Assembly (NCBI GenBank): GCA_965221775.1
Contig: CBDCSU010000006.1
Span: forward strand, 832,001-896,000
DNA from: Candidatus Latescibacterota bacterium
Lineage (GTDB): Bacteria > Latescibacterota > UBA2968 > UBA8231
DNA: 64,000 bases
Direction of reading: 5' to 3'
The notes beneath the pieces were generated by a model. It had not been told where the DNA came from and did no database searches. It was given only the letters and a program-made list of their open reading frames with translations. Of the stretch, positions 49,782 through 64,000 are shown in pieces; the stretch's first letter is position 1; each line of letters starts with the position of its first letter. A program made the translations under genes and the position numbers.

Positions 49782-50705
49782 ATGCGCACCTTCCTCGTTT
49801 CCCTCATGACCTTGGCGTCCCTCCTGGGGCTCGCCAGCGTCACCCACTCCCACGTCGGCGACCAGGTCTACTTCTTCCACGAGCTGCTCGACGAGGACCT
49901 GGACCGCATCGATCTGACCGACGGCAGCGTCGAGGACTGGCTCGAGGTCGTCGGCGAGCCCTCGCTGACGGCCAGCGATTTCTACTGGCTCTTCGGTGCG
50001 TACGATCTATCGGACTTGGACTTCCGCATCTGGCTCGCCTGGCACCAGGGCAGCGGTACTCTCTGGGTCGCCATGGAGCGCTTCGACGATCTCTACCTCA
50101 ACAACTACGACGGGGCCGGCCTCCACGAGATGGTGGGCTGGGACTCCAGTATCGCCTTCATGGTCGACGGTGATCACACCGGCGGGATCTACGGCCAGCT
50201 GCTCGGGATCAACTGCGAAGAATGCACGGACGAGCAAGTCCTGTGGAACCACCGGCAGGCGCAGCGGTGGATGGCGATCGCCGCGGCGCCCGGCGGCGGC
50301 GACATCCTGGACTACGACGGCGCCAGTGACTGGGTGATCCGGGCGCCGTATGCCGCAGCCGGCGGCGGGGTCATGGGCGAGAGCCCTGCGACGACGGTTA
50401 CCGAGTTCATGTTGACCCCCTTTGACGACCTCATCTACAACGACGAGGAGGCGTCCACGCCCTCCGAACTCTACCCCGGCAAGGTCATCGGGTTTTCGAT
50501 CTCAATGTGGGACAACGATGCTGTGGCTTGGGGAGGGCCCGCGCGTGTATCAATTTCGCTATCTGGCAATTGGCAGGTGATGATCAAGGCGGATCTCTTC
50601 TCCGACGGTTTACTCGTCGGCGCCGGGGAAGACCCCTCCCGCTACGACGACGTCTCCGCCGTGGAACCGTCCTCCTGGGGGCGGATCAAGGCCAGCTTCA
50701 AGTAG
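49782..50705 (+). CDS. Secreted CBM9/DOMON-like protein with C-terminal SWGRIK motif
   Basis: Signal peptide, GGAGG RBS, paralog of 1..831, ends SAVEPSSWGRIKASFK. Confidence 0.65.
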   Translation: MRTFLVSLMTLASLLGLASVTHSHVGDQVYFFHELLDEDLDRIDLTDGSVEDWLEVVGEPSLTASDFYWLFGAYDLSDLDFRIWLAWHQGSGTLWVAMERFDDLYLNNYDGAGLHEMVGWDSSIAFMVDGDHTGGIYGQLLGINCEECTDEQVLWNHRQAQRWMAIAAAPGGGDILDYDGASDWVIRAPYAAAGGGVMGESPATTVTEFMLTPFDDLIYNDEEASTPSELYPGKVIGFSISMWDNDAVAWGGPARVSISLSGNWQVMIKADLFSDGLLVGAGEDPSRYDDVSAVEPSSWGRIKASFK

Positions 50706-50880: not shown

Positions 50881-51420
50881 ATGACGTCGATAGCGGGGGT
50901 AGTCACTGGCTTGGCGCTGCTGGTTGGCGGCGCTGTCATGCACGATGAGAACTACGCCAAGGACGATCCTCGCCTTCGCCGCATGAAGATTCATGAGCAG
51001 AAGGAGCACGTTGGTTACCTCCTCGGAGCGGCAGGGGGAGCTCTCTTCTCCCTGTCTCTCCAGGAGATACTGGACAGACGGACCGAGATAACCCTTGGCC
51101 CGACTCTTGTGAGAACAACCCTGGGGAGCGGACTCGTGTGGATCGGACTACTGACCCACGAAGATCCCCATAGAGGAGATCGGGATACGAGGATGGCCTA
51201 TGAGACACAGAAGACGAATGACCTTCAGGAGCACTTCGGCTACCTTCTCGGCCCCCTGGGAGCCGCTGCTGCAGCCCTCTCGGTCAAGGGCTATCAGAAT
51301 CACCGTAGCCAATCCAAGGCCCTCGTGGACACGCCCTCTTTCAGCATCCCGCCAGGCCTCCTACCCTCTATCAAGAGGACTCCTCAGAGGTTCGGAGAAA
51401 CCCCTGTAGCCCTTCGCTAG
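50881..51420 (+). CDS. Hypothetical membrane protein with internal two-fold repeat
   Basis: EHVGYLLGAAG / EHFGYLLGPLG repeat. Atypical codon usage. Confidence 0.4.
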   Translation: MTSIAGVVTGLALLVGGAVMHDENYAKDDPRLRRMKIHEQKEHVGYLLGAAGGALFSLSLQEILDRRTEITLGPTLVRTTLGSGLVWIGLLTHEDPHRGDRDTRMAYETQKTNDLQEHFGYLLGPLGAAAAALSVKGYQNHRSQSKALVDTPSFSIPPGLLPSIKRTPQRFGETPVALR

Positions 51421-51441
51421 TGCTCCGATTAGGTATCATAC

Positions 51442-51530
51442 AAGGTCATCGGCTTCACCATCAGCACGAGAGACAACGACGCCACCGACGGAATGGGGCG
51501 CCAGCACTACTACCTTCAGCTTGGCCGATC
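51442..51530 (+). pseudogene. Remnant of SWGRIK-family paralog
   Basis: AAGGTCATCGGCTTCACCATC...GACAACGACGCCACC (KVIGFTISTRDNDAT) matches 52071..52120. Confidence 0.6.
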
Positions 51531-51561
51531 TTTAGGACCTCCACTTCAGCGAGCAAACACC

Positions 51562-52310
51562 ATGCGCACCTGCCTCGTTTCCCTCCTGACCTTGGCTCCG
51601 CTCCTGGGCCTCGCCGGCGCCGCCCACGCTCACATCGGCGACCAGATCTACCCATCTTCGAGCTACTCGATGAGGATCTGGACCGGATCGACCTGACCGA
51701 CGGCAGCGTCGAGGACTGGCTTGGCGTCCTCGGCGAGCCCTCGCTGACGCCCGCCGACTTCTACTTTCCGGACCATTACGATCCAAGCAGCGTGGACAAC
51801 CGCTTCTGGCTCGGCTGGCACCCGGCGAAGCGGCACCCTCTGGGTCGCCATGGAGCGCTTCGATGACATCTACCACAACCACTTTGCGGGAGAGGTCAAG
51901 GAGTCGGGGCTCTCAACGATGAACCGCTGGGACTCGTCTTTCACCTTCATGGTCGACGGCGATCACTCCGGCGGACGGCACCTGGCCCTTGAAGAGGAAA
52001 CCAAGCTCCAGAACAACCGCCAAGCCCAGCAGACGAGGCCGCTTCCAGAGCCTCGATACTGTATCCGGGGAAGGTCATCGGCTTCACCATCCACACGACC
52101 GACAACGACGCCACCGAGTACCCCGACGGATTGGGGCCGGCCGACCTTCAATTGCTCGGCGACAGGGGGGAGGCCGTCCGCTTCGCCGATCTCTTCGTCG
52201 ACGGCCTGCTCGTCGGCGCCGGAGAAGACCCCTCCAGCTACGACGACGTCTCCGCCGTGGAGCCGTCCTCCTGGGGGCGGATCAAGGCCGCCCTCCGGGG
52301 GCGTCCCTGA
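51562..52310 (+). pseudogene. Frameshifted, internally deleted SWGRIK-family paralog
   Basis: MRTCLVSLLTL signal peptide. Frameshifts near 51650 and 51830. The segment between RQAQ and the ASxLYPGK block is missing. Ends SWGRIKAA. Confidence 0.8.
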
Positions 52311-52328
52311 GCCATGCCCCGCCCCCGG

Positions 52329-52370
52329 TTGCTCCCGATCGTCCACCCACCTATACTGAACATTTATTCA
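52329..52370 (+). promoter_or_regulatory. sigma70 promoter with LexA-like box
   Basis: TTGCTC-17 nt-TATACT overlapped by TGAACATTTATTCA (GAAC-N4-ATTC, one mismatch from GAAC-N4-GTTC). Confidence 0.55.
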
Positions 52371-52402: not shown

Positions 52403-53488
52403 ATGCCCGACCCCACCGCCCCCCGGCCTCCCGCCAGGAGGGGCCGCGCCGCCGGCTTCAACACCCCCAACCGCTTCGAGCCCCTGCACCTGGAGCCCGA
52501 CCCGGCCGAGCCCGGGGAGGAGGGCTTCGAGGAGCGGGTCCCCACCCAGTACCTGGTCGACGCCAGCCGCTCGATCCTGGCCGAGAACGACTCGCCGGAC
52601 ATCGGCTTCCGCTTCAGCCTGAACCCCTACCGCGGCTGCGAGCACGGCTGCGTCTACTGCTATGCCCGGCCCAGCCACGAGTACCTGGGGTTCTCGGCGG
52701 GGCTCGACTTCGAGACGAAGATCCTGGTCAAGGAGCAGGCCCCGGAGCTGCTGGAGGCGGCCCTGCGCAAGAGGTCGTGGCAGCCCCAGGTGGTGGCCCT
52801 GTCGGGCAACACCGACTGCTACCAGCCGGTGGAGCGGCGGCTGCAACTCACGCGGCGGTGCCTGGAGGTGTTCCTCAAGTTCCGCAACCCCGTGAGCCTG
52901 ATCACCAAGAACCACCTGGTGACGCGAGACCTCGACATCCTGGGGGAAATGGCGGCCCTCGACCTGGTGCACGTGACCCTGTCGATCACCAGCCTCGACC
53001 GAAGGCTGACGGCGGCCATGGAGCCGCGCACCTCGCGGCCGGAGCGGCGCCTGCAGGCGCTGGACCAACTCTCCGGGGCGGGGGTGCCGGCGGGGGTCAA
53101 CGTGGCGCCCCTGATCCCGGGGCTCAACGACTCGGAGATCCCCGCCATCCTCGAGGCGGCGTCGGCGAGGGGGGCGCGCTGGGCCAACTACATCCTGGTG
53201 CGCCTGCCCGGGGCCGTGCGGCCCCTGTTCCTGGACTGGCTGCAGCGGAACTACCCCGACCGCGCGGACAAGGTGGTGCACCGGCTCGAGGCGGTGCGGG
53301 GGGGACAGCTCTCCGACGCGCGCTACGGCAGCCGCATGCGGGGCGAGGGGGAACTGGCGCGGCTGGTGGCCCGGTTCTTCGAGATCGCCAAGAGGCGGGC
53401 AGGACTGGGCGCCGGGGGGCACGAGTTGGCCGTGCACCGGTTCCGGCGCCAGGGGGAGGATCAGCTGGAGTTGTTCGGGCAGGGGTGA
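52403..53488 (+). CDS. PA0069/Rv2578c family radical SAM protein (SPL-like, DNA-repair associated)
   Basis: NPYRGCEHGCVYCYARP, LDFETKI, NTDCYQPVE, MEPRT, C-terminal QLELF clamp-binding-like motif. Confidence 0.92.
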   Translation: MPDPTAPRPPARRGRAAGFNTPNRFEPLHLEPDPAEPGEEGFEERVPTQYLVDASRSILAENDSPDIGFRFSLNPYRGCEHGCVYCYARPSHEYLGFSAGLDFETKILVKEQAPELLEAALRKRSWQPQVVALSGNTDCYQPVERRLQLTRRCLEVFLKFRNPVSLITKNHLVTRDLDILGEMAALDLVHVTLSITSLDRRLTAAMEPRTSRPERRLQALDQLSGAGVPAGVNVAPLIPGLNDSEIPAILEAASARGARWANYILVRLPGAVRPLFLDWLQRNYPDRADKVVHRLEAVRGGQLSDARYGSRMRGEGELARLVARFFEIAKRRAGLGAGGHELAVHRFRRQGEDQLELFGQG

Positions 53489-53529
53489 GGGGGGAGCGGC
53501 GGGATCCCCCGAGGGTGCGCCACCGCGGG

Positions 53530-53661
53530 GTGTCACGCATTGGACACACCGGCGACTGCTAGAGCACACACCGGCATCGCCCCCGGTAGCGGGGAGAAGT
53601 CCGCAAGTCCTTGCCCTCCAGCCTGGTGGAGGGCAAAGGGCGGCGCTGGCACGGCGTTTGT
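53530..53661 (+). promoter_or_regulatory. sigma54-type promoter module, copy 1
   Basis: TGGCAC-N5-TTGT at 53647..53661. GCAAGTCCTTG 44 nt upstream. GTGTC-N8-GACAC at 53530..53547. Confidence 0.65.
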
Positions 53662-53785
53662 ATCGGTGCGGCGGCAGAGCCCTCCTCCCACCCCATCCAC
53701 GGGATAGGTCGCCGCCATCGCAGATCCCGGATCAGCTCCCGCCAGGCGATCCCCAGCCTTTGACCGTCCGCGGGCCCCGCGCCCG

Positions 53786-55153
53786 GTGGGGTCCTCCGGT
53801 CCCGCCGTCAGGCGCCGGCCCGAGAGGGCGGCAGACAGCCTTGCGCACGCAGGCCGCGCCCGTCCCCGCCCTTGGGCGCGAGGCATCATCGTTCTCAACG
53901 GCAACTTCGTCCCCGCATCGGCGGCCGGGCCCTTCAAGTACGGAGCGGTGGGCTATGCCCTAAGGGCGGCGGAGGCCCTGCGTCGCCCGGGCCTGCTGGC
54001 GGGGTTCCTCCTCTACCGGCGCGACGAGGGATTGGACCGGCCGCGGCTAGACCCGGTGCCGCTGCTCGGGTATCCGGCCCTCCAGCTCGGCTTTCACTTC
54101 GGCATGGACCGCCAGGTCCTGGGCGCCGCCCTGGAGGCCGCCCGCGCGCGCCTCGGCGGCGGACGGCTCTACTACCAGACCAACGTGCTGCTGCCCTTTC
54201 ACCCGCCCGGGCGGCCCCTCGTCGTCACCCACCACGCGCCCTTCGTCGACCACGTGGTCGAGGTCATGGGGCCGCGCCTGGCGGAGGAAGCCTTCGGCGC
54301 CGGGCGCGAGAAGCTGGAGCACCTGAGGGTCAACCAGCGCCTCGGACTGAAGCACCTGGCCCGCAGCCGCGGTGCCGCCGTCGAGATCTCGTCGATCCAG
54401 GCGGAGTACCTGCGCGCCCACGGCGTGGAGGGCCGGTTCATCCACAGGATCCACCCTCCCCTGGAGTCCGACGCGGTGAACGGCCTCTCCGGGGAGGGGG
54501 CGCGCCTGCGCAGCTTCATCGCCCGGGGCGGCCCCCGTCTGGTCCTGTGCACGGCCTGCTCGCGGCTGGACGCCTTCAAGAACGTCGAGCTCTTCGTGAG
54601 GGCCGCCCTCGGGCTGGCCAGGTCGGGCCTCGACCTGCGCGCGCTGGTCATCGGGGGCCCTCCCGATGATGCGCAGCGGCGGCGGCTGCAGGGGCTGGTG
54701 GACGCCGGCGTGGCGCACCGATTCCGCTTTTCCCCGAGGGTTTCGCGCGACGACCTGGCCCACCTGCTCGACGATCTGGCCGGCCGCGGCCTCTTCGTCT
54801 GTCCCTCGCGCTACGAGACTTGCGGCCTCACCCCCCTGGAGGCGGCGGCCCGCGGGGTCTGCACGCTGGTGGCGGACACGCCCGACAGGGTCGAGGCGGC
54901 CACGCTGGTCCCGCCCGGGCACCGGTTCACCCCGACGGCAGAGGGCCTCGCAGACGCCGTGCGCCGGCTCGCGGGCGACGGGCGGCTCCGGGTCGAGGGC
55001 CGAGTCCTCGACGAAGGCGCACGGGCCGGCAGCCTCGACTTCGACGCGCGCTTCATCGCCGCCTGGCAGCGTGCGACGGCGCCGCGGGGGCCCGGGTGCG
55101 CCGCGGCCGGCGACGGGCGGGAACTCTCCCGCGATCCGGCCCATCCGGCCTGA
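53786..55153 (+). CDS. Glycosyltransferase family 4 (divergent)
   Basis: VTHH, SRLDAFKN, PSRYETCGLTPLEAA (ExxxxxxxE). Start uncertain. Confidence 0.8.
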   Translation: MGSSGPAVRRRPERAADSLAHAGRARPRPWARGIIVLNGNFVPASAAGPFKYGAVGYALRAAEALRRPGLLAGFLLYRRDEGLDRPRLDPVPLLGYPALQLGFHFGMDRQVLGAALEAARARLGGGRLYYQTNVLLPFHPPGRPLVVTHHAPFVDHVVEVMGPRLAEEAFGAGREKLEHLRVNQRLGLKHLARSRGAAVEISSIQAEYLRAHGVEGRFIHRIHPPLESDAVNGLSGEGARLRSFIARGGPRLVLCTACSRLDAFKNVELFVRAALGLARSGLDLRALVIGGPPDDAQRRRLQGLVDAGVAHRFRFSPRVSRDDLAHLLDDLAGRGLFVCPSRYETCGLTPLEAAARGVCTLVADTPDRVEAATLVPPGHRFTPTAEGLADAVRRLAGDGRLRVEGRVLDEGARAGSLDFDARFIAAWQRATAPRGPGCAAAGDGRELSRDPAHPA

Positions 55154-55161
55154 GGGTTGCC

Positions 55162-55797
55162 ATGCCCAAGGGCCGTCCGGTCCCGCTCGATCTCTCCTGC
55201 CACTTCAACAACGGCGGCATCGCCGCGGACGGGCGGCCGGCGGAGGGCGGTCTCGACGGCCTGGGCACCGCCTTCCGGGCGCAGAGCCTGCCATCCCCGG
55301 GTGGGACGATCCTCAGCCAGGGGACCCCCTTCCTCTTTCCGGGCGCAACCCCCGGCTCGGAGGACAACATCGCCTGCGAGGCCCAGGTGATCCCCCTGCC
55401 GCCAGGCCCCTGGGGTGCCCTCCACGTCCTGGGCATGTGCGATTGGCGGGCCTTCGAGGAACCCCTCCGGTTGCAGGCCTCCGACGGCACCTTGGCGGAG
55501 ACCCGCCTGGGACTGAGCGACGCGCCGCGCTACGGAGGGCTCCAGTACGGCGAAAGAGCGGCCCTCTCGTGTCCGCTCATGACTCCCGACACGTCGGTCC
55601 CTCTCTCTTCTCTCATCGGCTCCTCGCCGCCCGAAGCCGGATGCGAGACGGAGGAGACGCGTATCGAGGCCGGGATCTGGCACCAGGTGATCGACCTGCC
55701 CGGGCCCCGGCCCCTCACGGCCCTCGTGCTGCCCGACAACCCGTCCATGCACCTCTTCGCCCTCACCCTGGCCGCGGCGGACCCGGCCTCCCCGTGA
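55162..55797 (+). CDS. Stand-alone carbohydrate-binding-like beta-sandwich protein
   Basis: DL..HFNN.GI..D....LDG.G...LP...PF..P....DNI....Q.I.LP...LP....HLFALTL pattern, as recalled from accessory domains of glycoside hydrolases. Confidence 0.5.
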   Translation: MPKGRPVPLDLSCHFNNGGIAADGRPAEGGLDGLGTAFRAQSLPSPGGTILSQGTPFLFPGATPGSEDNIACEAQVIPLPPGPWGALHVLGMCDWRAFEEPLRLQASDGTLAETRLGLSDAPRYGGLQYGERAALSCPLMTPDTSVPLSSLIGSSPPEAGCETEETRIEAGIWHQVIDLPGPRPLTALVLPDNPSMHLFALTLAAADPASP

Positions 55798-56792
55798 GCA
55801 AGCGGATCCCCGGCATTCCCTTCTGCACCAACCGGCACTACAACTGCGTCTACGTGGTGCTCGACAGTCTGCTGCGCTTCCATGGCCACGAGCCCACCGT
55901 GGCATGCTTTTCCAACTGGGACTTCCTCTACCTCCGGGAGGAGGGACGCTTCGCCATCGACGGCCGCGCAATCCCCCTTCCAACGATGCTCGGCGCCTTC
56001 GGGATCGGCCTCTTCCACCGCGCCGACGCCGACGCCGACGCCGCGTGGAAGGCCGTGAAGTCGCGGCTCGACACCGGTACCCCGGTAGCCGTCAACGTCG
56101 ACGTCTTCGCCCTCGCCCGGGCCGGCCTCTATCCCCGCCTGCGTCACGCCGACCACCAGTACATCGCCGCCGGGTACGACAAGCCGGCGGGCACCGTCCA
56201 CCTGATCGATCCGTCGCCCTGGCAGCCCTCCGCGCGGGACATTCCCCTCGGCCTGTTCCTCGCCTGTTGGGACATGAGCGCCTTCTCCGGGGTGCGCGGC
56301 CGCTACAACTGGACCTGGCTGCGGGCGCCGGCGCACCCCCCTTCCCTGGGCCGCGGCCCCCTTCAGGCCCTCCTGCGCCGCAACCTGCGGAGCATGTCGG
56401 CCCCCGGCGGCCAGGCGGGCCTGGTGACGGGCCTGGAGGGGATCCGGCAGCTCGCCGCCGATGCCGGGGCCTGGGCGGGGCGGGAGGACGCCGACCTGCA
56501 GAGCCATCTGCGGCACTGCGCCCGGCTGCTGCTGGAGATCGCCGTGCTCCGCGAGGGGCACGGCCGCTTCCTGGGGCACGTGGGCCGGCTCTTCGACCAG
56601 CCCCGTCTGGCAGCTCTCGGCGCCGAGTTCGGGACGATCTCCCAGGGCTGGTTCGTGGTGAAGAGCCTGTGCCTCAAGGGGGCCCTCAAGGAGCCGCGGA
56701 GTCTCCTGCCCCGCATCCAGTCCCGGCTCGAGGACATCGAGGCCCGCGAAGGCAAGGCCCTGGCGGGACTGGCGGAGGCCGTGGAATGGTAG
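55794..56792 (+). CDS. BtrH N-terminal-like papain-fold (C39/NlpC-P60-like) protein
   Basis: HYNC (Cys), PVAVNVDVF, HADH..AAGYD (His), LIDP (Asp), then a helical C-terminal domain. GTGA overlap with the upstream gene. Confidence 0.7.
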   Translation: MSKRIPGIPFCTNRHYNCVYVVLDSLLRFHGHEPTVACFSNWDFLYLREEGRFAIDGRAIPLPTMLGAFGIGLFHRADADADAAWKAVKSRLDTGTPVAVNVDVFALARAGLYPRLRHADHQYIAAGYDKPAGTVHLIDPSPWQPSARDIPLGLFLACWDMSAFSGVRGRYNWTWLRAPAHPPSLGRGPLQALLRRNLRSMSAPGGQAGLVTGLEGIRQLAADAGAWAGREDADLQSHLRHCARLLLEIAVLREGHGRFLGHVGRLFDQPRLAALGAEFGTISQGWFVVKSLCLKGALKEPRSLLPRIQSRLEDIEAREGKALAGLAEAVEW

Positions 56793-56837
56793 GGAGGCAG
56801 AGCCGTCCCACGGGGAGCGGGGCCCCCGGCCCCGGGG

Positions 56838-56967
56838 GTGTCACCTCCACGCCGCACCGGTGGCACCCGTCACTCACACCCGGCCGGGCGGCCGGCCCCG
56901 GGGGAGGCCGCAAGTCGTTGCCGCCCAGCACGCGGCGGGGCCGCGGGGGTGGTGGCACGGCGTTTGT
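56838..56967 (+). promoter_or_regulatory. sigma54-type promoter module, copy 2
   Basis: Identical TGGCACGGCGTTTGTAT at 56953. GCAAGTCGTTG 43 nt upstream. GTGTCAC 115 nt upstream. Confidence 0.65.
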
Positions 56968-57021
56968 ATGGGAGAAGGCCCAGGGCCACGGCCCACCCCC
57001 TCTCGCCGCGGAGACGCGCTG

Positions 57022-58212
57022 ATGAACATCGCCCTGATCGGTCAGGAGATGCCGCCCCTTTCCGGGGGCCTGGACCGCCACGTTCAGGACTGCGCCGCCG
57101 GACTGTCGCGGCGCGGCTGCGGGGTCCGCGTCCTCTCCATCGTCGGAGAGGGGCGGGGGCTGGCCGGCGACGAGATCCTGCTCCGACCCGGCGGCTCCCC
57201 CATCCAGGTGCACCGGACCTCGGTGCCGGGAGCGGACGACCCCGAGCCGAGGCTCACCGCCGGCGCCTGCCGCGGGCTCGCCCCGCACTGGTGCTCGCTG
57301 CTGGCCGACGCCGACGCGGTCTGCAGCTTCGGAGCCTCTACGGCCCTGGCCGGCGCCGAGATCCGCCGGCGGCTCGGACTCCCCTTCATCGCCGTCCTCC
57401 CCGATCTGCCCTCGCCGTCCGACGCCCGCCTCCGGGAGGTCCTGGGCTGCGGCGCCGATCTCTTCGTCGGCCTCTCGCGCTCCCAGTGCCGCCGCGCCGC
57501 AGAGCGCTTCGGCCTGCCCATGACCCCGGTCCCCCACGGCGTCGACACCGAGCTCTACCGGCCCGTGGCGGGGCCGGCCGCCGAGGCCGCCCTCGACCGC
57601 TACACCGTGCTGGGCGGCATTCCGGGCCCGCTTGTCACAAGCCCCGTGCGCATCGACCCGAGGCAGGGCCTCGAGCCGCTCATCGAGGCCTTCGAGCTGG
57701 TCGTCGCCCTGCGCCCCGACGCCACCCTGCTGATCGCGGGCCACGCCGGCTTCCGCCACCACCTTGTGGGCAACGCCTACGCCGACTACCTGTCCGCCCT
57801 GGTGCAGATGAAGGAGCTGGGCGCCAGGGTGCGCTTCGGCGGGGGCGTGTTCAAGGCCCGCCACATGCCCGCTCTCTACTCGCGCTCGCACCTGTGCGTC
57901 GTGGCCGGCGGGGGCGAGGACTTCGGCGCCGCGCCGGCCGAGTCCCTGGCCTGCGGGACACCGGTGGTGGCCCCCCGCGGCGAGGGCATGGCCGAGGTCC
58001 TGGGCCACGGCACCGGGGGCCTCCTGGTCGACGGCCGGGATCCGGTGAAGGTGGCGCGGGCCATCCTCTCCCTCCTCGACGACGACGCCCTGCGGAACCG
58101 ACTCGGCCGCGGCGGCCGCGAGCACGTGTGCCGCGCCTTCCCGCTGCGGGCGCAGGCCGACCGCTACCTCGAGCTGTTCTCCTCCATCACCGCCGCCCGC
58201 GCCGCCGCCTGA
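57022..58212 (+). CDS. Glycosyltransferase family 4
   Basis: MNIALIG..PP..GG, VPHGVDTELYRP, EDFGAAPAESLACGTPVV. Confidence 0.88.
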   Translation: MNIALIGQEMPPLSGGLDRHVQDCAAGLSRRGCGVRVLSIVGEGRGLAGDEILLRPGGSPIQVHRTSVPGADDPEPRLTAGACRGLAPHWCSLLADADAVCSFGASTALAGAEIRRRLGLPFIAVLPDLPSPSDARLREVLGCGADLFVGLSRSQCRRAAERFGLPMTPVPHGVDTELYRPVAGPAAEAALDRYTVLGGIPGPLVTSPVRIDPRQGLEPLIEAFELVVALRPDATLLIAGHAGFRHHLVGNAYADYLSALVQMKELGARVRFGGGVFKARHMPALYSRSHLCVVAGGGEDFGAAPAESLACGTPVVAPRGEGMAEVLGHGTGGLLVDGRDPVKVARAILSLLDDDALRNRLGRGGREHVCRAFPLRAQADRYLELFSSITAARAAA

Positions 58213-58226
58213 GCGCGCCCGAAAGG

Positions 58227-59654
58227 ATGCCCCAAGTGCAGCCGGAGTCCCTGGAATCCATCTGCCTCCCCGACGACGGCACGGCCCTGCTCACGCCGCC
58301 GCCGGGGAGCCTGCTCGAATCGGCCGCGGGGGAATCCCCCTCGATCCGGCAGCGGCTCGAGGACGCCCACCGCGAGCTCGCCGGCGGCGATGCCCGGGAG
58401 GCGGCGGGTTCCTTCCAGGCGGTGCAGGCCCGGTGGCCGCATCCCTTGCCTGCCATGGCCGAAGGCGTCGCCCTCGCCCTGGCGTCGGACTGGCGCGGCG
58501 CCCTGACCCAGCTCTCCGGGAGCGCCGGCCAGCTCGAGGAGCGGGGCCTGCCCGACGCGGCCCTCGGCTGCCGGCTGAACCTGGGGTACGTCCACTACGT
58601 CCTGGGCGACCCCGCCGGCGCCGAGTCCACCCTCGACCAGGCGGTGCAGGCCGCGAGCCTCGCCGGCAAGACCCGGCTGCTGGCCACCGGACTCCACGAG
58701 AAGGCCGCCCTCCGGCTGCGCCACGGCCGTTACGGGGACGCCCGCGAGGAGTGCGAGAGAGCGATGGCGGAATGCCCCGGGGAGGGGGCGGCGCTGGCCC
58801 AGGTCATGTGCACGCAGGCGATTGCCTCCCAGGCCCTCGGAGAACTCCCCCGGGCCGAGGAGGAGTTCAGGGCCTCCCTGTCGCTGGCCTCGGGGGTCTC
58901 GCCCTTCGCGGAGCTGCGGGCCTCCGTCAACCTGGCCGTGCTCTGCCAGCTCACGGCGCGCGGCACGGAAGCCCTGGAGCTGCTCGCCGCGGCCACGGCC
59001 GTCGCCGAGCGCCAGCGGGACGCACGGTTCCTCGCCAAGATGCGGTTCCTGCGGGCCCTGATGGACTTCGGGGAGACCGGGGAGGAGGCCCTGCCGGCCG
59101 CTCTCGCCGAGGTCGAGCAGATGCGCGGCCTCCACTACCGCAAGGGAGAGCTGGACGCCATCCCCATGCTGGTCCCGTGTCTGCTGGAGTGCGGCAAGAA
59201 CCTCGAAGCGGAGACCCTGGCCGCCGCGGCGATGACCACCGCGCAGGAGTGCGGGTACCTGGCCGGGCTCCTCGAGGCGATGTCGTGCGCCGCCCTGGTC
59301 CATCTCGCCGGCGCCGACGCCGAGCGCGCGAAGGAGGCGGCCTGCGGCGTCCTGGAGAAGAGCGAGGCGGCGCAGCTGCCGGTCATCGGCATCAAGGCCC
59401 GCCGGATCCTGTCGGACGTGTCGCTGCAGGAGGGCGAGCCGGAGAGAGCCCTGGAGCACCTTCGGCGGGCGGAGGGAGCCGCCGCGGAGATCGGGGCCCA
59501 GGTCCTGCAGTGCCACCTCATGGAGGCGGCAGCCGCCCTCCTGGAGATCTGCGGCAGGATCGAGGAGGCCGAGGCGGAGAGAGCGGCTGCCCAGGCGCGG
59601 GGCCTCTCCATCGGACTGGGGAGCGCTGCCGCAGTCGGGAGCAGCATCGAATGA
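58227..59654 (+). CDS. Tetratricopeptide repeat (MalT/Rap-like TPR) protein
   Basis: NLGYVHYVLGDPAGAESTL, QALGELPRAEEEF, NLAVL helical repeats. No catalytic motif recognised. Confidence 0.7.
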   Translation: MPQVQPESLESICLPDDGTALLTPPPGSLLESAAGESPSIRQRLEDAHRELAGGDAREAAGSFQAVQARWPHPLPAMAEGVALALASDWRGALTQLSGSAGQLEERGLPDAALGCRLNLGYVHYVLGDPAGAESTLDQAVQAASLAGKTRLLATGLHEKAALRLRHGRYGDAREECERAMAECPGEGAALAQVMCTQAIASQALGELPRAEEEFRASLSLASGVSPFAELRASVNLAVLCQLTARGTEALELLAAATAVAERQRDARFLAKMRFLRALMDFGETGEEALPAALAEVEQMRGLHYRKGELDAIPMLVPCLLECGKNLEAETLAAAAMTTAQECGYLAGLLEAMSCAALVHLAGADAERAKEAACGVLEKSEAAQLPVIGIKARRILSDVSLQEGEPERALEHLRRAEGAAAEIGAQVLQCHLMEAAAALLEICGRIEEAEAERAAAQARGLSIGLGSAAAVGSSIE

Positions 59655-59703
59655 ACACGGGGGCATCTACGTGGGCGCTGAACTCACCGAAAGGAGATCC
59701 ATC

Positions 59704-59904
59704 ATGAACAGACTCATCAAGCCGCAGAAGCAGTCCTACCAGGGCGAAGACGCCCAGGTGCTCGCCTACTCCGACATCTGCGAGATGGCAGCCGTCCTCT
59801 GCACGGGCGTGACGATCGGCTTGCTGGGCTTCGGCGTTGCGCCGGCCGTGGTCGTGGCGGGCGTGTCGTGCGCCATCCTGGTCCTGATCTGCGGACTCAT
59901 CTGA
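59704..59904 (+). CDS. Putative RiPP precursor P1
   Basis: AAGGAG RBS. MNRLIKPQKQSYQGEDAQVLAY-SDICEMAAVLCTGVTIGLLGFGVAPAVVVAGVSCAILVLICGLI. Confidence 0.85.
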   Translation: MNRLIKPQKQSYQGEDAQVLAYSDICEMAAVLCTGVTIGLLGFGVAPAVVVAGVSCAILVLICGLI

Positions 59905-59968
59905 GTCCTGTACCACAAGGGGGCATCTACGCGGGCGCTACATTCACATTCACCGAAGGAGATCCATC

Positions 59969-60196
59969 ATGAACAGACTCATCAAACCGCAGAAGCAGTC
60001 CTACGAGGGCGAAGACGCCCAGGTCCTGGCCTACTCCCGTCTCAGCGAGATGGCATGGGCCGCCAGCGTCTGCGCGGGCGCCATAGGCGCTGCGGGCTTG
60101 TTGGGCCTCGCCGTGCCGCCTCTCCTGGCGGCGGTGGGCGTGTCGTGTTTCATCCACTACGTCGTCTACTCGGCGGGCAGCAGGGGTTACCTCTGA
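59969..60196 (+). CDS. Putative RiPP precursor P2
   Basis: AAGGAG RBS. MNRLIKPQKQSYEGEDAQVLAY-SRLSEMAWAASVCAGAIGAAGLLGLAVPPLLAAVGVSCFIHYVVYSAGSRGYL. Confidence 0.85.
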   Translation: MNRLIKPQKQSYEGEDAQVLAYSRLSEMAWAASVCAGAIGAAGLLGLAVPPLLAAVGVSCFIHYVVYSAGSRGYL

Positions 60197-60331
60197 TCCT
60201 TCACCCCTGCATTGGCCCCACCCAATCGCGGCGTCGATAGGGCGCCGCAGTACTCACTGAGCCATCAAACCCCTTAGCGCCCCGTAGATGCCCCCATGGC
60301 TGGCGCCACATTTCCCGGAAGGAGATCCACC

Positions 60332-60547
60332 ATGAACAAGCTCGTCAAGCCGCAGAAGCAGTCCTACACCGGCGAGGACTCCCAGGTCCTTGCCTATTCC
60401 GATACCTGCGAGATGACATGGGCCACCGCCATCTGCACGGCCCGGCCCTGGTTTGGCCTCGGCCGGAGTCCTTTCATCGCCGCGACGGGAGTGACGTGCC
60501 TCCTTTTCTCCACAGTCTGTTCGGCGGTGCGCAACGCTTACATCTGA
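60332..60547 (+). CDS. Putative RiPP precursor P3
   Basis: AAGGAG RBS. MNKLVKPQKQSYTGEDSQVLAY-SDTCEMTWATAICTARPWFGLGRSPFIAATGVTCLLFSTVCSAVRNAYI. Confidence 0.85.
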   Translation: MNKLVKPQKQSYTGEDSQVLAYSDTCEMTWATAICTARPWFGLGRSPFIAATGVTCLLFSTVCSAVRNAYI

Positions 60548-60624
60548 TCCTGTCACCCCATCAAACCCCTTCAGCGCCCAGGGGCATCTACGAGGGCGCT
60601 ACACTCACCGGAAGGAGATCCGTC

Positions 60625-60846
60625 ATGGACAAACTCATCAAACCCCAGAAGCAGTGCTACACCGGCGAGGACGCCCAGGTCCTGGCCTATGCCCGTGACT
60701 GCGAGATTGCCTGGGGCGTCAGGACCTGCGTTGGCTTCACAACCATTGGATACGTGGTGACCGGGTCGCCTTGGGGTGCCGTGGCCGGTGCGCTCTTGGC
60801 CCTCGCTTACATCGTCTCCATGGCGTCGTACAACGGTCACATCTGA
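60625..60846 (+). CDS. Putative RiPP precursor P4
   Basis: AAGGAG RBS. MDKLIKPQKQCYTGEDAQVLAY-ARDCEIAWGVRTCVGFTTIGYVVTGSPWGAVAGALLALAYIVSMASYNGHI. Confidence 0.85.
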   Translation: MDKLIKPQKQCYTGEDAQVLAYARDCEIAWGVRTCVGFTTIGYVVTGSPWGAVAGALLALAYIVSMASYNGHI

Positions 60847-60945
60847 CCTTCCCCCCGGGGATTGCACCGCGTCTTGCTTGAGCGTCGACAAGACGTGTAG
60901 TACTCACTGACCGACCAAACCCTCAGCGCCCCGTAGATGCCCCCC

Positions 60946-62658
60946 ATGATCACAACACTCCTGTCGTCCCTGCCCCGGATTTCGGGAGCGTTCTCCTACG
61001 CGGTCCGGGTCGAAGCCCGCACCATGCGCCACGAGGCCCGGTCGAAGCCGGGGGACTTCTGGCCGGCCGCCGTCATCCACGCGGCGGCCGGAGGGTCCTT
61101 CCTGCTGGTTCTCTGGATCTCCCTCCACACCCTCAAGGGGATCCTCGGCGACGGGGACCCCGAGCTGTCCCTGGCCCTGGCCTCCGCGTTTCTCGCCTCC
61201 TACGCCTTCCTGTGGTTCTGCATCGCCATCGGCTTCGGCGGCGAGATCGTACCCATCTCCCGCCTGGAGAAGCTCGCCGTGCTTCGATGGACCCCGGGGC
61301 AGGCCTACGCCGCGGGCCAGGTGATGGCCGCGTTCCAACCCCTGCACCTGTTCTTCTCCCTGGCCTTCCTGACCACCGGGCTCACGCTCTTCCCGCCGGC
61401 CGGCGCCGCGTCCGTCCTGTTCACGTGCCTGGCCACGGGCGTGGCCGCGTTCGGCATGGTCGCCTGGATCCAGGGCACGCGCTGCGCCATCGAGCTGGTG
61501 TCGTGGAAGGGCGCGCTGTGGACACTCGCCCGAGTCCTGGGGGGCGGGGCGTTCCTGGCTCTCACCCTCCTCCTCGCCTGGTCCGTGGTGGGCGGCGACT
61601 GGATCGAGCGGCTTCGCGGGCTTCCGGGGTCCTGGTTCGAGATGGCGCCCACCAGCCAGTTGGCCCGCGCCTGTCAGCTGGCCGGGGAAGGAGGCCTCGC
61701 GGACCTGCCGGCGCCCCTGGCCCTGCTCGGCGCCTTCGCGGCGGCCGGCTTTCTCTTCGGCTGGCGCCTGACCCGCCGGCGGGTCTTCCTCGCGGGCGGG
61801 TCCCGCCTGGCCCCGGCCGGCCCGTGCGACCGGATCCCGGGCCTGGCCCGGTGGCTCGGGCGGGTCCTGCCGCCGCCCTATCCGAACCTGGTGGCCCGCG
61901 AGGTGCTGTCCACCCTCCGCTGGAGACAGATCTGGATACAGGCCGGGCTCGCCGCGGTATTTGCATGCTGCACGGCCATCCTTCCCGCCCTCGCCCTCTT
62001 TGCCGGCAAGGGGCGCGGCGACTTTCCCTACACCTGGCAGAACGTAATAGGGATCGCCTTGCTCGCCTTCTTCCAGAGCGGGACCGCCGCCAACCTGTTT
62101 TCGAGAGAGGGCCGGGGCGCCTGCGAGTACCTGCTCCTGCCCCTCGACGAGCGGCAGATCCTGGCGAGCAAGAACATCGCCTTCGCGGTGATCCAGTACG
62201 GGCTTACGGCCTTCTGCGCCCCGGCCCTCCTCTTCGTGTTCTGGTTCCACGATCTCCTCGGCGCCGGGTTCCAGGTCCTCGGGGCCGTGGTCCTGGCCCC
62301 CGTGGCGAGCGTCATCGCCGGCAACTATCTCTCGATCCTCAACCCCGCCAGGCAGCCCGCATCGAAGAAGGACCCGAGGGGCCATGTCCCGCGGAACAGC
62401 GGCCTCCTGCAGGCACTGGTGACGACTCTCCTCATCGCCGCGGCGGCCCTGTACTTCTCGATCGATTCCGAGTACCTGCGCCACGCGGCGGCGGCCTTCG
62501 GGATTCCCTCGATCGACTCCGGGTACCTGCGCTACGCGGCGGCCGCCTTCGGGGGCCTGGCCGCCGTGGCGCTGCCGGCGGGGTACGTCGTCGCCCTGCG
62601 CCACCAGACCCGGCTGCTCCGGCAACGCCGCCTCGCCGTGGCGGAAGTGTTCTCGTAA
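60946..62658 (+). CDS. ABC-2-type permease (export/immunity)
   Basis: Multi-TM protein with NLFSREG...YLLLPL...ILASKN pattern, adjacent to an ABC ATPase. Confidence 0.75.
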   Translation: MITTLLSSLPRISGAFSYAVRVEARTMRHEARSKPGDFWPAAVIHAAAGGSFLLVLWISLHTLKGILGDGDPELSLALASAFLASYAFLWFCIAIGFGGEIVPISRLEKLAVLRWTPGQAYAAGQVMAAFQPLHLFFSLAFLTTGLTLFPPAGAASVLFTCLATGVAAFGMVAWIQGTRCAIELVSWKGALWTLARVLGGGAFLALTLLLAWSVVGGDWIERLRGLPGSWFEMAPTSQLARACQLAGEGGLADLPAPLALLGAFAAAGFLFGWRLTRRRVFLAGGSRLAPAGPCDRIPGLARWLGRVLPPPYPNLVAREVLSTLRWRQIWIQAGLAAVFACCTAILPALALFAGKGRGDFPYTWQNVIGIALLAFFQSGTAANLFSREGRGACEYLLLPLDERQILASKNIAFAVIQYGLTAFCAPALLFVFWFHDLLGAGFQVLGAVVLAPVASVIAGNYLSILNPARQPASKKDPRGHVPRNSGLLQALVTTLLIAAAALYFSIDSEYLRHAAAAFGIPSIDSGYLRYAAAAFGGLAAVALPAGYVVALRHQTRLLRQRRLAVAEVFS

Positions 62659-62677
62659 CGGGAGACTGAGACCGACA

Positions 62678-63445
62678 ATGGAACCGACCGTGGAGCTGCA
62701 AGACCTGACCAAGCGCTACCGGTCCACCGTGGCCGTCCGTTCCCTCTCCCTGGGGGTGGAGCCGGGGGCGATCCTCGGTCTGGTGGGGCCGAACGGCGCC
62801 GGCAAGACGACGCTGCTCAACATGATGGCCGGGCTCCTGGAGCCGAGCGAGGGCACGGTGCGCCTCTTCGGACGCACCTACGCCGAGGCCGGCAACGACA
62901 TCCGCGCCCTGACCGGCGTCATGCGCGACGACCCGGGGCTCTACGAGAGCCTCACCGGGTCCGAGCACCTGAGCTTCACCGGCTCGGCGTACGGCCTCGA
63001 TCCCGCGGAGGTGGCGGAGCGGTCGCGCGAGGTGCTGGAGTTCATGGATCTCGAAGGCGCGGCCGGCGAGACCGCCGCCACCTACTCGGCGGGCATGAGG
63101 AAGAAGCTGGCCCTCGCCTGCATCCTCCTGCACCAGCCCCGCCTGGTCCTGCTCGACGAGCCCTTCGCCACCCTCGACCCGGAAGCCGCCCTCCAGGTGG
63201 AGGAGCTGCTCCGCAGGCTGTCGGCCGGCGGCGCCACCGTGGTCCTCAGCTCCCACGTCCTCGACCGCGTCGACCGGCTCTGCTCCGAGCTGGCCTTCAT
63301 CAACAAGGGAGAGCTGATCCTGCGGGGCCCGCCCGAGGAGCTGCGCGCCCGCGGCGCCGAGGGCAAGGAGGCCGGGAGTCTCGAGGAGCTGTACATGGAT
63401 CTGGTCGCCCCGGAGGGGGACCGGCGGAGGCTCTCGTGGTTGTGA
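62678..63445 (+). CDS. ABC transporter ATP-binding protein
   Basis: GPNGAGKT, YSAGMRKK, LLDEP, SSH. Confidence 0.95.
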   Translation: MEPTVELQDLTKRYRSTVAVRSLSLGVEPGAILGLVGPNGAGKTTLLNMMAGLLEPSEGTVRLFGRTYAEAGNDIRALTGVMRDDPGLYESLTGSEHLSFTGSAYGLDPAEVAERSREVLEFMDLEGAAGETAATYSAGMRKKLALACILLHQPRLVLLDEPFATLDPEAALQVEELLRRLSAGGATVVLSSHVLDRVDRLCSELAFINKGELILRGPPEELRARGAEGKEAGSLEELYMDLVAPEGDRRRLSWL

Positions 63446-64000
63446 GCCGGCCCGGCTGGCTCTCCCTCCGGCGCAGGAAACCGGCGGGGGGGTCCCTCCT
63501 CCTCTTTCTCTGGGGCTTCCTCAGGCCCTACCGGCTGCGCGCCGCCGAGGCCCTCGCCGCCATGGTCCTGGCGGCGGCCCTCACCGTGCCCCTGCCGCTG
63601 GTGACGATCTACCTCGTGGACGAGGTCTTCGCCGCCGGCTCGCGGCCCACGCTCCACGCCGTCTGCGCCGGGATCCTCGCCGTCTCGGTCCTCGGCACGC
63701 TCCTGAGCCTGCTGCAGGGCTACCTGCTCACCGTCTTCGCCCGGCGCGTGTTCTTCGACATGGAGATCACCCTCACCCGGCGCCTGCTGGCGCAGTCCGT
63801 CGGCTACTTCCGCAAGGCCGGCTCCGGCTACCTCGCCACCCGGGCCAGCGACGACGTGCGGCAGCTGGGGGCTCTCATGGCCGGGACCTGGATCCAGGCG
63901 ATGAACTCGGCCTTCGTCCTCGTCGCCGGCGCCGTGGTGATGATCGCCCTGAGCCCCGGCCTGGCCGCGATCCTGCTGGCCTTCGTCCCCGTCCTCGCCG
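63442..64000 (+). CDS. ABC exporter transmembrane domain (3' truncated), no N-terminal C39 domain
   Basis: Open frame from GTG 63442: FLRPYR...LPLVTIYLVDEVF...YFRKAGSGYLATRASDDV, typical of ABC_membrane exporters. Confidence 0.8.
   Translation, partial: MSRPGWLSLRRRKPAGGSLLLFLWGFLRPYRLRAAEALAAMVLAAALTVPLPLVTIYLVDEVFAAGSRPTLHAVCAGILAVSVLGTLLSLLQGYLLTVFARRVFFDMEITLTRRLLAQSVGYFRKAGSGYLATRASDDVRQLGALMAGTWIQAMNSAFVLVAGAVVMIALSPGLAAILLAFVPVLA

Follow-up and report, generated by a model that had tools for sequence, protein, structure and literature searches.

A putative bacteriocin-like cluster with four hydrophobic precursor peptides, a carrier-protein module and lineage-specific GT4 genes in a sponge- or marine-associated Gemmatimonadota genus

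The 64,000-nt stretch of DNA analysed here (G000:C6:832001-896000, hereafter the window) comes from a genome of 5.36 Mb and carries, towards its 3′ end, four tandem small open reading frames (ORFs), P1–P4, that encode hydrophobic peptides with a common leader and are embedded in a row of glycosyltransferase, papain-fold and ATP-binding cassette (ABC) transporter genes. The reading favoured here, at somewhat better than an even chance, is that these genes form a rare operon-like cluster of a sponge- or marine-associated Gemmatimonadota genus (g1), a bacteriocin-like system of the ribosomally synthesised and post-translationally modified peptide (RiPP) type with a fixed four-peptide set, a carrier-protein module, and family 4 glycosyltransferases (GT4s) that do not define it. 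From gene content, homologies, co-occurrence, cysteine covariation and a predicted fold, we infer the enzymatic steps, the secretion and the antimicrobial role discussed below, and the cluster is rated as RiPP-like or bacteriocin-like with an undescribed maturation set.

The G+C content of the cluster region is ~72%, which gives rise to many long spurious ORFs, and reading frames were settled by a plot of third-codon-position G+C (GC3) by frame and by inspection of start codons. A single gene row on the + strand resulted, running from a first GT4 gene (GT4a) through genes for a 211-aa protein, a BtrH-like protein, a second GT4 (GT4b) and a tetratricopeptide repeat (TPR) protein to P1–P4, a polytopic membrane protein taken as a putative permease, an ABC ATPase and an ABC exporter (Table 1). 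The start of the BtrH-like gene overlaps the stop of the 211-aa gene, and 230 nt separate the BtrH-like gene from GT4b. P1–P4, the 211-aa protein and the 573-aa permease matched no family in Pfam or NCBIfam scans. All genes named in a preliminary description of this DNA were recovered as co-directional genes on the + strand by GC3 plot, start codons and Pfam matches, and its view of the locus as a rare, uncharacterised cluster centred on precursor peptides is borne out by the gene content and the tiny size of the precursor family.

P1–P4 form a four-copy direct repeat (151 nt, 70–77% identity to the reference copy), each copy being preceded by its own GGAG ribosome-binding site. Among the four window paralogs, 16 of 22 positions at the start of the leader are invariant vs 5 among the remaining 44–53, in agreement with the constant leader described previously for four precursors. 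The conserved leader is hydrophilic and ~23 aa long (L-x-K-P ... S-Y-x-G-E-D ... V-L-A-Y), ends in ...Q-V-L-A-Y-S/A and lacks a GG or GA motif, and it is followed by a very hydrophobic core of 43–52 aa. A tblastn search of the genome detected these four copies only (next match E 0.087). A precursor profile retrieved 22 proteins among 5.8 billion clusters, one of which was named by its source as coming from a Gemmatimonadaceae metagenome-assembled genome, and a broader profile run on 1.84 billion representatives gave 11 matches (E≤0.001), of which 10 resemble precursors. The four paralog types, of 66, 71, 73 and 75 aa, recur in conserved form from one genome to the next, which indicates a fixed multi-peptide set and not a hypervariable library; from the “peptide library” proposed earlier, the four leader-sharing paralogs are retained.

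Cysteine covariation was judged on 33 distinct precursor sequences. Cys26 and a C-terminal Cys (alignment column 67 or 71) were both present in 18 sequences and both absent from 14, with Cys26 alone in one (P4 of the window) and the C-terminal Cys alone in none, while Cys35 and Cys60 were present together in 30 of the 33; P0022, a relative of P4, retains all four Cys. An AlphaFold2 (AF2) model of P2, built from a 24-row alignment with a predicted local distance difference test (pLDDT) score of 82.5, shows helices at residues 14–44 and 51–72 joined by a turn at 45–50. The covariation and the predicted fold support a core shaped as a helical hairpin that would be pinned by an inner and an optional outer nested Cys pair, and agree with the hydrophobic, disulfide-braced peptides put forward in the preliminary description; judging from the sequences, the nested pairs are probably disulfides formed after export.

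The extreme hydrophobicity of the cores and the two long predicted helices would also fit resident two-helix membrane proteins, such as ABC accessory or regulatory subunits or substrate mimics, whose conserved N-terminus would be a cytoplasmic interaction motif. Conservation of the paralog types between species, without hypervariability, and the failure of Pfam and NCBIfam to recognise the ORFs as bacteriocin precursors are likewise in keeping with such proteins. The explanation is nevertheless regarded as quite improbable: covarying Cys suggest disulfides and hence an oxidising, extracytoplasmic site, a thiol-disulfide oxidoreductase-like gene is found in one relative cluster (G040, where its product is a membrane-anchored CxxC protein of Redoxin/AhpC-TSA type), a set of tandem paralogs that share one leader is characteristic of precursor peptides, and the cluster further encodes duplicated immunity-type pumps, a QhpE-like protease of the cytoplasm and an exporter accompanied by an LcnD-like protein.

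In a survey of 168 genomes of the phylum, the precursor family was found in seven, namely four of the ten g1 genomes (G000, G160, G166 and G167) and G039, G040 and G148, the precursor of G148 (profile E 0.002) being confirmed by reading the ORF. Those of G040 and G039 were missed by both the leader-only and the precursor-profile hidden Markov models (HMMs) when these were run on the retrieved loci and were found through ORFs beside the TPR gene together with a short motif scan. Six weak precursor-profile matches in another genus, g13 (E 0.0016–0.009), were judged spurious, as they covered the hydrophobic part only, had no leader and did not lie at BtrH loci. The other g1 genomes and records with precursors retain the gene order in full, and the 573-aa permease is syntenic in L008, L010 and L053. 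Three public records show the whole window gene order at 70–95% protein identity; these are probably the same genomes as those surveyed in g1 and were therefore not counted twice. One of these cluster records is labelled Candidatus Latescibacterota, and the other two and one protein carry the name Gemmatimonadaceae, a possible taxonomic label mismatch. A scan of metagenome contigs with the BtrH-like alignment gave four loci, one of which is apparently the G039 contig.

In each of the four precursor-bearing lineages a TPR gene directly precedes the precursor gene or genes, the loci outside g1 being L061 (G040), L067 (G039) and that of G148. In these three genomes a single precursor gene follows the TPR gene and precedes genes for two small permeases, an ABC ATPase and an ABC exporter; the precursors show L-x-K-P and then V-x-A/S-Y-S/T, with one Cys near the leader–core junction and another at or next to the C-terminus. 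G040 and G039, which represent two other families of the class, also carry the pair formed by the 211-aa protein (shown below to be AziU2-like) and the BtrH-like protein in the same cluster. The pair genes are immediately upstream of the TPR gene in G040, and in G039 they close a row of ABC exporter, 147-aa protein, Yip1, S8/DUF1611, ACP (acyl carrier protein), AziU2-like and BtrH-like genes. In G148 no BtrH was found with this query, which says little as the contig ends inside the exporter gene and the assembly is 86% complete. A complex predicted for the TPR protein and a precursor scored 0.02 against a mark of 0.32, a result that counts neither for nor against binding.

The two GT4 genes do not share this distribution. 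The neighbourhoods fetched from G039, G040 and G148 contain no GT4a or GT4b homolog (tblastn E<1e-3), and the whole assemblies contain no GT4a ortholog (E≤1e-20) and no GT4b ortholog (E≤1e-30), which makes the GT4s a genus-specific addition and not class-defining. Orthologs of GT4a were confined to five g1 loci, G135 (61% identity) and two fragments in g13 genomes. GT4b-like genes of 55–58% identity occur in four g1 genomes that have neither precursors nor BtrH; the one that matches best, from G159, occupies the same interval, bounded by a PA0069-family gene and the conserved genes downstream, adjoining a gene for a 640-aa polytopic protein, and GT4b may be a resident or locally recruited gene. 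GT4 glycosylation had been put forward as the defining chemistry, a proposal that is not upheld, as homologous precursors occur without the GTs in all three lineages outside g1. The suggested co-occurrence of leader, GT4 and BtrH_N held in part, the BtrH-like pair accompanying the precursors in G039 and G040 and the GT4s accompanying them nowhere outside g1. That GT4a and GT4b act on the pathway product within g1 itself is given appreciably less than an even chance.

These data bear most directly on the possibility, considered unlikely, that the products are glycocin-like hairpin peptides for which the two GT4s are class-defining maturases and the BtrH_N protein a stand-alone leader protease. 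GT4a and GT4b stand in the same strand-continuous row as the precursors, with short gaps; GT4a scores above the cut-off of the Pfam family PF20706, “GT4-conflict” (GT4 in conflict systems; 39.1 bits vs 26); and nested Cys pairs on a helical hairpin resemble glycocins. A GT4, Cao24 of cacaoidin, has been proposed to glycosylate a RiPP (PMC8068269). A protease role for the BtrH-like protein would be in line with a weak Peptidase_C39_2 match (E 0.0076, below cut-off) and with the G040 cluster, in which the papain-fold pair is the sole protease-like protein seen. Against this stand the absence of both GT4s from three of three precursor lineages outside g1, at locus and assembly level, the GT4b-like genes of the four precursor-less g1 genomes, with the G159 copy beside PA0069, and the multi-GT locus without BtrH in which the G135 relative of GT4a lies. 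In the genus-mate record L010 (7906–8478) GT4b aligns to residues 1–155 and 362–390 only, an internal loss of ~206 aa, despite four retained precursor genes, although an assembly artefact is possible. P2-type cores have no Ser, Thr or Cys within the inter-helix turn. The glycocin-like explanation also has to contend with a QhpE-like S8 protease encoded downstream and with a BtrH-like protein that is paired with an AziU2 homolog, linked to an ACP, and closer in whole-length fold to AziU3, CcbD and CtaG than to C39 peptidases, as described below.

Compared with the glycocins sublancin, glycocin F and pallidocin, the system shares ribosomal peptides with a leader, a helix-loop-helix with two nested Cys pairs (here predicted), dedicated ABC export and, in the G040 cluster, a thiol-disulfide oxidoreductase-like gene. 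It differs in that the GT families are GT4-type only (PF00534, PF13692, PF13439 and PF20706), and Pfam scans of the cluster proteins revealed neither a GT2 of SunS/GccA type nor a C39 exporter, and inspection of the leader no double-glycine motif, as had been stated for the visible part of the cluster. Furthermore, the cores are longer and far more hydrophobic than those of glycocins, and the GT4s are absent from three of the four precursor-bearing lineages. In one further g1 genome, G165 (L053 1756–15600), a 13.7-kb lower-GC stretch replaces the 3′ part of GT4b, the TPR gene and all precursors; it contains ATPase-, UvrD-like helicase-, cytosine-methyltransferase- and Vsr-like ORFs (named by reading the ORFs) and looks like a defence-island insertion.

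Beyond the window the cluster extends for ~25 kb, its final gene encoding the ACP, and the remainder of the exporter gene is followed by genes for a 147-aa single-pass protein, a Yip1 protein, an S8/DUF1611 protein, an HlyD protein, two MacB/FtsX permeases, a MacB ATPase and the ACP. A remark that the cluster runs off the window and might include further maturases proved apt, given the S8/TIGR04066-like protein and the ACP found there. The former (~640 aa) combines an S8 subtilase with a DUF1611 domain. Its S8 domain, in which the Asp, His and Ser motifs that we take to be catalytic are visible in the translation, has QhpE as best NCBIfam match (E 5.4e-36, 124 bits, below the cut-off of 165). 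The C-terminal domain (residues 273–585) matches TIGR04066, “peptide maturation system protein” (E 1.3e-30, 106.7 bits, below the cut-off of 200), the ortholog in G039 giving 102.7 bits, likewise below cut-off. On sequence grounds this protein is a more obvious leader-peptidase candidate than the BtrH-like protein. The ACP, of 88 aa, scores 41.4 bits for PP-binding (cut-off 20.8) and matches an AsbD-type NCBIfam model (E 1.4e-8) as well as other ACP models; for the two ACPs tested, both ordinary PP-binding ACPs, TIGR04069 was not among the 14 and 13 NCBIfam matches (E≤0.001).

The 211-aa protein had been labelled a sugar-binding-like domain; a phmmer search of PDB instead identified it as a homolog of Azi28 (8gs1_A, E 2e-14) and AziU2 (7wuw_A, E 2.4e-14). 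For its neighbour, the assignment as a BtrH_N-like Cys/His/Asp protein stands on the PF14399 match and a conserved triad, Cys18-His121-Asp139, of which H121 and D139 are invariant and C18 is conserved in ≥90% of 24 sequences reaching down to 28% identity; in a comparison of sequences its spacing resembles that of C11/H128/D144 in CtaG. The single BtrH-like sequence gave no phmmer match in PDB, whereas a family profile of 24 homologs matched AziU3/Azi29 at E 4.4e-10. The AF2 model (pLDDT 93.9) was compared by Foldseek, and over the full length its template-modelling (TM) scores were 0.71–0.79 with AziU3, 0.65–0.68 with CcbD, including entries complexed with a peptidyl carrier protein (PCP) domain and with methylthiolincosamide, and 0.57–0.66 with CtaG. 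C39-type peptidases reached a TM of ~0.3 only, on the N-terminal half. PF14399, PF16169 and Foldseek together give a bipartite fold of an N-terminal BtrH_N and a C-terminal helical part. The description of this protein as a stand-alone papain-like protease is thus not sustained, given its AziU2-homologous partner, its AziU3/CcbD/CtaG fold and its linkage to an ACP.

That linkage was counted on 30 BtrH loci in 28 of the 168 genomes, in flanks of 1.5 kb only. In 25 of the 30 loci the BtrH-like gene is directly preceded by an AziU2-like gene; an ACP gene stands upstream of the pair in 15 and an S8/DUF1611 gene nearby in 14, as opposed to five for GT4a and four for GT4b, all within g1. In genus g13 the module adjoins an ABC exporter, a rhodanese gene and resistance-nodulation-division (RND) pump genes. 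Three g13 genomes have a different ORF of 74–76 aa, rich in Cys and Trp and with a strong ribosome-binding site, 5–6 kb upstream of the BtrH-like gene; in G134 it adjoins an S8/DUF1611–ACP–AziU2-like–BtrH-like module, and a stretch in this ORF, T-Y-S-G/P-E-G, recalls S-Y-T-G-E-D of the window leader. The position of this ORF near the module suggests that the latter may serve more than one precursor family. No precursor was recognised in the remaining pair-bearing genomes.

Another unlikely explanation holds that two functions lie side by side: GT4a, the AziU2-like and BtrH-like proteins, GT4b and the ACP would make an acylated sugar or glycolipid, and the TPR, precursor and ABC genes would be a separate class-II-like module for an unmodified bacteriocin or membrane peptide. 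The nearest fold relatives of the BtrH-like protein use carrier thioesters, BtrH belonging to the biosynthesis of the aminoglycoside butirosin and CcbD having been crystallised with methylthiolincosamide and a PCP domain, and both N-acylate amino sugars, which provides an analogy. Separate functions would also be compatible with 22 of the 28 pair-bearing genomes having no member of this precursor family, with the RND efflux and rhodanese genes beside the g13 module, with the 230-nt gap between the BtrH-like gene and GT4b, and with the best NCBIfam matches of GT4b (EpsE, MSMEG_0565, MshA and BshA, all far below cut-offs), among which MshA, BshA and EpsE are GT4s of small-molecule or exopolysaccharide pathways. 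On the other hand, G039 and G040, from two other families, combine the pair with TPR, precursor and ABC genes in clusters that have no GT4; the fusion of S8 to the TIGR04066 “peptide maturation” domain points to a peptide substrate; the Cys-rich small ORF precedes the BtrH-like gene at three g13 loci; and Pfam scans of the cluster proteins revealed no adenylating, polyketide synthase (PKS) or fatty acid synthase (FAS) loading enzyme.

As to the chemistry of the pair, PMC12865890 describes CtaG, BtrH and AsbE as papain-like ligases that depend on a carrier protein and have a Cys-His-Asp triad, a papain-like N-terminus and a helical C-terminus, and calls AziU2/U3 a structural relative with a different function; AziU3/U2 is, according to PMC12559475, an aziridine synthase that works by sulfate displacement. 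By analogy, the BtrH-like protein is no less likely to act as a carrier-protein-dependent transacylase than to cleave leaders. For the pair as an enzyme, the transacylase is the leading candidate at a little under an even chance, a role as second or only protease is a weaker possibility, some other function is unlikely, and AziU3-like ring-forming chemistry more unlikely still.

The likeness to CtaG, BtrH, AsbE and CcbD extends to the bipartite fold, the Cys-His-Asp triad and a cluster-encoded carrier protein matching AsbD-type models; unlike in those systems, no ACP-adenylating enzyme was found in the cluster, and identity is only 12–16%. To our knowledge, no enzyme of the CtaG/BtrH/AsbE/CcbD group has an AziU2-like partner or acts on ribosomal peptides. 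AziU3 and AziU2 (Azi29 and Azi28 of azinomycin) also have both subunits side by side and provide the best structural match, yet at 19–20% identity, and the present genes stand in a precursor-peptide and ABC-exporter context, with no sulfotransferase or azinomycin-type genes among the Pfam and NCBIfam matches of the cluster proteins scanned; AziU3/AziU2 presumably require a sulfated amino-alcohol pathway with a sulfotransferase and an amino-group carrier protein. The literature covered, which excluded subscription-only papers and the supplementary enzyme list of PMC12865890 (where this subfamily may be listed), gave no description of this gene combination; it did not link BtrH to a leader peptide, and the AziU2, AziU3 and Azi28 papers, judged from their listing, were not on ribosomal peptides.

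The small subunit of quinohemoprotein amine dehydrogenase loses its leader, with QhpC and QhpE taking part, ahead of ABC export. The S8 domain has QhpE as best match, and the lack of a signal peptide on the protease fits a leader cut off in the cytoplasm ahead of such export; the present protease differs in its score (124 vs 165 bits), in the absence of a QhpD radical SAM and of dehydrogenase subunits, and in its unrelated precursors. A further parallel is found in uncharacterised Firmicutes sactipeptide-like clusters, in which TIGR04066, the ACP-related TIGR04069, a subtilase and an ABC exporter co-occur (PMC10731318 and PMC4573289). That cassette (TIGR04068/TIGR04066/TIGR04069; SacP23, Roseburia) shares with the present cluster a subtilisin-family protease, a TIGR04066-like protein, a carrier protein, an ABC exporter and Cys-containing precursors. 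Here, in contrast, the protease and the TIGR04066-like domain are fused and the latter is below cut-off, the ACP is a standard PP-binding one with no TIGR04069 match, and an AziU2-like/AziU3-like pair takes the place of a TIGR04068-type radical SAM. The only radical SAM gene nearby lies just upstream of the cluster and belongs to the PA0069 family (477 bits vs a cut-off of 360). As this gene also borders the corresponding interval of G159, which belongs to the same genus and lacks the cluster, it is not considered part of the system, and a radical-SAM (sactipeptide or ranthipeptide) explanation was rejected because this gene belongs to the flanking conserved region.

The transport genes fit a bacteriocin-like export and self-protection set, as judged from their sequences. 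The 582-aa exporter (PF00664 at residues 41–305, PF00005 at 368–517) has no C39 domain and gave MsbA-, HlyB- and NHLP-exporter-like NCBIfam matches, all below cut-offs, as are those of the ABC ATPase to TIGR01188 drrA (E 2e-59) and TIGR03740 (E 1.1e-43). The gene upstream of the ATPase had been called an ABC-2 permease; it does encode a polytopic membrane protein, whereas the family assignment has no Pfam or NCBIfam match behind it and is a lead from Atlas neighbours only (score 0.97–0.98, with ABC_tran_2 or 12TM_1 in 11–32% of members). For the 147-aa protein, LcnD_C is carried by the closest Atlas clusters that have a name (score 0.92), likewise a lead only. The Yip1 protein matches YknW_fam (E 6e-8). 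YknWXYZ is a four-component efflux system that protects Bacillus against the SDP peptide, and a comparable set of a Yip1/YknW-like protein with HlyD adaptor, FtsX/MacB permease and ABC ATPase genes is present here and, divergently placed, in G040; the difference lies in a YknW_fam score far below cut-off (32 vs 110 bits), and self-protection is here a putative role.

Taken together, the cluster may be viewed as two modules with lineage-specific additions. A peptide and export module would consist of the TPR protein, the precursor(s), the permease(s), the DrrA-type ATPase, the exporter composed of a transmembrane and a nucleotide-binding domain (TMD-NBD), the LcnD-like accessory and the Yip1/YknW-like protein, and a maturation module of the cytoplasmic QhpE-like S8 protease fused to the TIGR04066/DUF1611-like domain, the ACP and the AziU2-like/AziU3-like pair. 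The S8 domain would cut off the leader in the cytoplasm, and the papain-fold pair and the ACP would carry out an acyl or peptidyl transfer on the peptide, a second protease being less likely. The ABC exporter would then secrete the peptide, with the Cys pairs oxidising outside the cytoplasm, and the ABC-2-type and YknW-HlyD-MacB-type pumps would shield the producer, while the GT4s, added in g1 only, may decorate the product. A bolder version, offered tentatively and thought rather doubtful, is that the S8::TIGR04066-like protease, the ACP and the AziU2/AziU3-like pair make up an unrecognised thiotemplate-assisted route of RiPP maturation, its g1 product also being GT4-glycosylated, that serves two or more families of unrelated precursors, one being the hydrophobic hairpins and another the Cys/Trp-rich g13 peptides. 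As part of the same doubtful proposal, an enzyme of CtaG/BtrH/CcbD fold that needs an AziU2-type partner would, after leader removal, move a carrier-bound acyl or peptidyl group to or from the peptide, and the system would count as a new RiPP class linking ribosomal with carrier-protein chemistry.

Several observations weigh against the favoured reading of a bacteriocin-like RiPP cluster. Its catalytic steps are all deduced, and the QhpE, TIGR04066, YknW and transporter family matches all fall below curated cut-offs. The closest solved relative of the pair, AziU3/U2, is an aziridine synthase, neither protease nor transacylase. Only six of the 28 genomes with the pair carry the hairpin precursor family, and the module may therefore act on other substrates. 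The G040 cluster has no S8/DUF1611 or ACP homolog in the 26 kb fetched, so that neither is universally required nearby, and the papain-fold pair is left as the sole protease-like candidate there, which favours the protease reading. On the peptide side, P4 of the window has lost both partner Cys, the covariation derives from related sequences and hence from few independent events, and the hydrophobic cores could leave the peptides in the membrane of the producer. With the GT4 genes inside the operon, the peptides may be glycosylated in g1. In this genome, moreover, the second MacB/FtsX gene of the cluster, for a MacB-type permease, is interrupted by ~5.2 kb of inserted DNA encoding an IS1595-family transposase (L006 18586–20000, L007 1–3755); in G167 and G160 the S8/DUF1611–HlyD–FtsX–FtsX–MacB ATPase–ACP row is uninterrupted and the second FtsX gene intact.

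The precursor genes are further set apart by a short motif with the core GGGGCATCTACG (Table 1), a copy number that was reached in none of 100 shuffles. Copies on the + strand at 59660, 59920 and 60581 lie ~44 nt upstream of the start codons of P1, P2 and P4, and copies on the − strand are found at 60283 and 60932, the latter overlapping the permease start codon, so that inverted pairs flank single precursor cistrons. This arrangement is kept in the orthologous loci L008, L009 and L010, and the arms pair in both the minimum free energy (MFE) and the centroid fold of the P4 cassette (z −2.81). The motif may serve in mRNA processing or stability, or be bound by a regulator. No Rfam family was found within 53000–64000 at E≤0.1, and scans for promoter and terminator consensus sequences gave nothing usable.

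Public sequencing runs provided additional matches. In an RNA-library run (X20), one 272-nt contig was identical to 59970–60241, the P2 cistron, and was the sole true match to the 6-kb stretch compared, the other matches being short ABC Walker-motif pieces from other organisms; this hints weakly at transcription of P2, DNA carry-over being possible. Contigs do not inform on the level of expression, and missing coverage elsewhere is no sign of silence. DNA contigs of a run labelled sponge metagenome (X6) span GT4b to the permease (57621–61794), and contigs of a run labelled marine metagenome (X8) span the 3′ part of the TPR gene, the four precursors and the start of the permease gene (58949–61202). 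Both sets differ from the window by tens of substitutions and are therefore attributed to related strains.

Table 1. Coordinates of the cluster features in the window and of the Cys/Trp-rich ORF in g13 genomes.
Feature	Position	Strand	Remarks
GT4a	53786-55153	+	455 aa from the sole in-frame start found; Pfam PF00534 E 2.7e-13, PF13692
AziU2-like protein, 211 aa	55162-55797	+	phmmer vs PDB
BtrH_N/DUF4872 protein, 332 aa	55794-56792	+	PF14399 E 5e-12; PF16169 E 2.9e-8
GT4b, 396 aa	57022-58212	+	PF00534 E 2.3e-26; PF13439 E 6e-9
TPR protein, 475 aa	58227-59654	+	TPR_2, TPR_12, TPR_MalT matches
Motif of 12-19 nt, core GGGGCATCTACG, five copies	59656-60944	both	no other exact copy in the window
Precursor P1, 66 aa	59704-59904	+	Cys 26, 33, 56, 63; orthologs P0018-P0021
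Precursor P2, 75 aa	59969-60196	+	inner Cys pair only
Precursor P3, 71 aa	60332-60547	+	four Cys
Precursor P4, 73 aa	60625-60846	+	Cys26 and Cys35 kept; both C-terminal partner Cys gone; extra Cys11 in leader
Polytopic membrane protein, 573 aa	60937-62658	+	putative permease partner of the next ATPase
ABC ATPase, 255 aa	62678-63445	+	PF00005 E 2.7e-28; DrrA / lantibiotic-protection type
TMD-NBD ABC exporter, N-terminal part of 582 aa	63436-64000, runs past the window	+	PF00664
g13 Cys/Trp-rich ORF	L069 9325-9555 (G134); L056 19362-19586 (G142); G125:C168:26630-26851		

Upstream of the cluster, the window also holds two paralogous genes (49782–50705 and 51420–52359) with a common N-terminal signal-like segment and a shared motif, E-L-L-D-E-D-L-D-R-I-D-L-T-D-G-S-V-E-D-W-L. 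The second looks split over two or three frames and is possibly a frameshifted pseudogene; no family was found for the first. A similar gene is present in L053.

If the favoured reading is correct, with this cluster the barely explored phylum Gemmatimonadota would have yielded a new class of ribosomally made peptide natural products. The cluster would also give a first functional context to AziU2-like proteins outside aziridine formation, to BtrH_N/DUF4872 proteins in peptide clusters and to the TIGR04066/DUF1611-like domain, and the unexplained pairing of TIGR04066 with a carrier protein in bacteriocin-like clusters would become directly testable. The distribution of the GT4 genes cautions that a RiPP class should not be named after enzymes added in one lineage. 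Hydrophobic, disulfide-braced hairpins such as those predicted here are candidate membrane-active antimicrobials of sponge and marine microbiomes.

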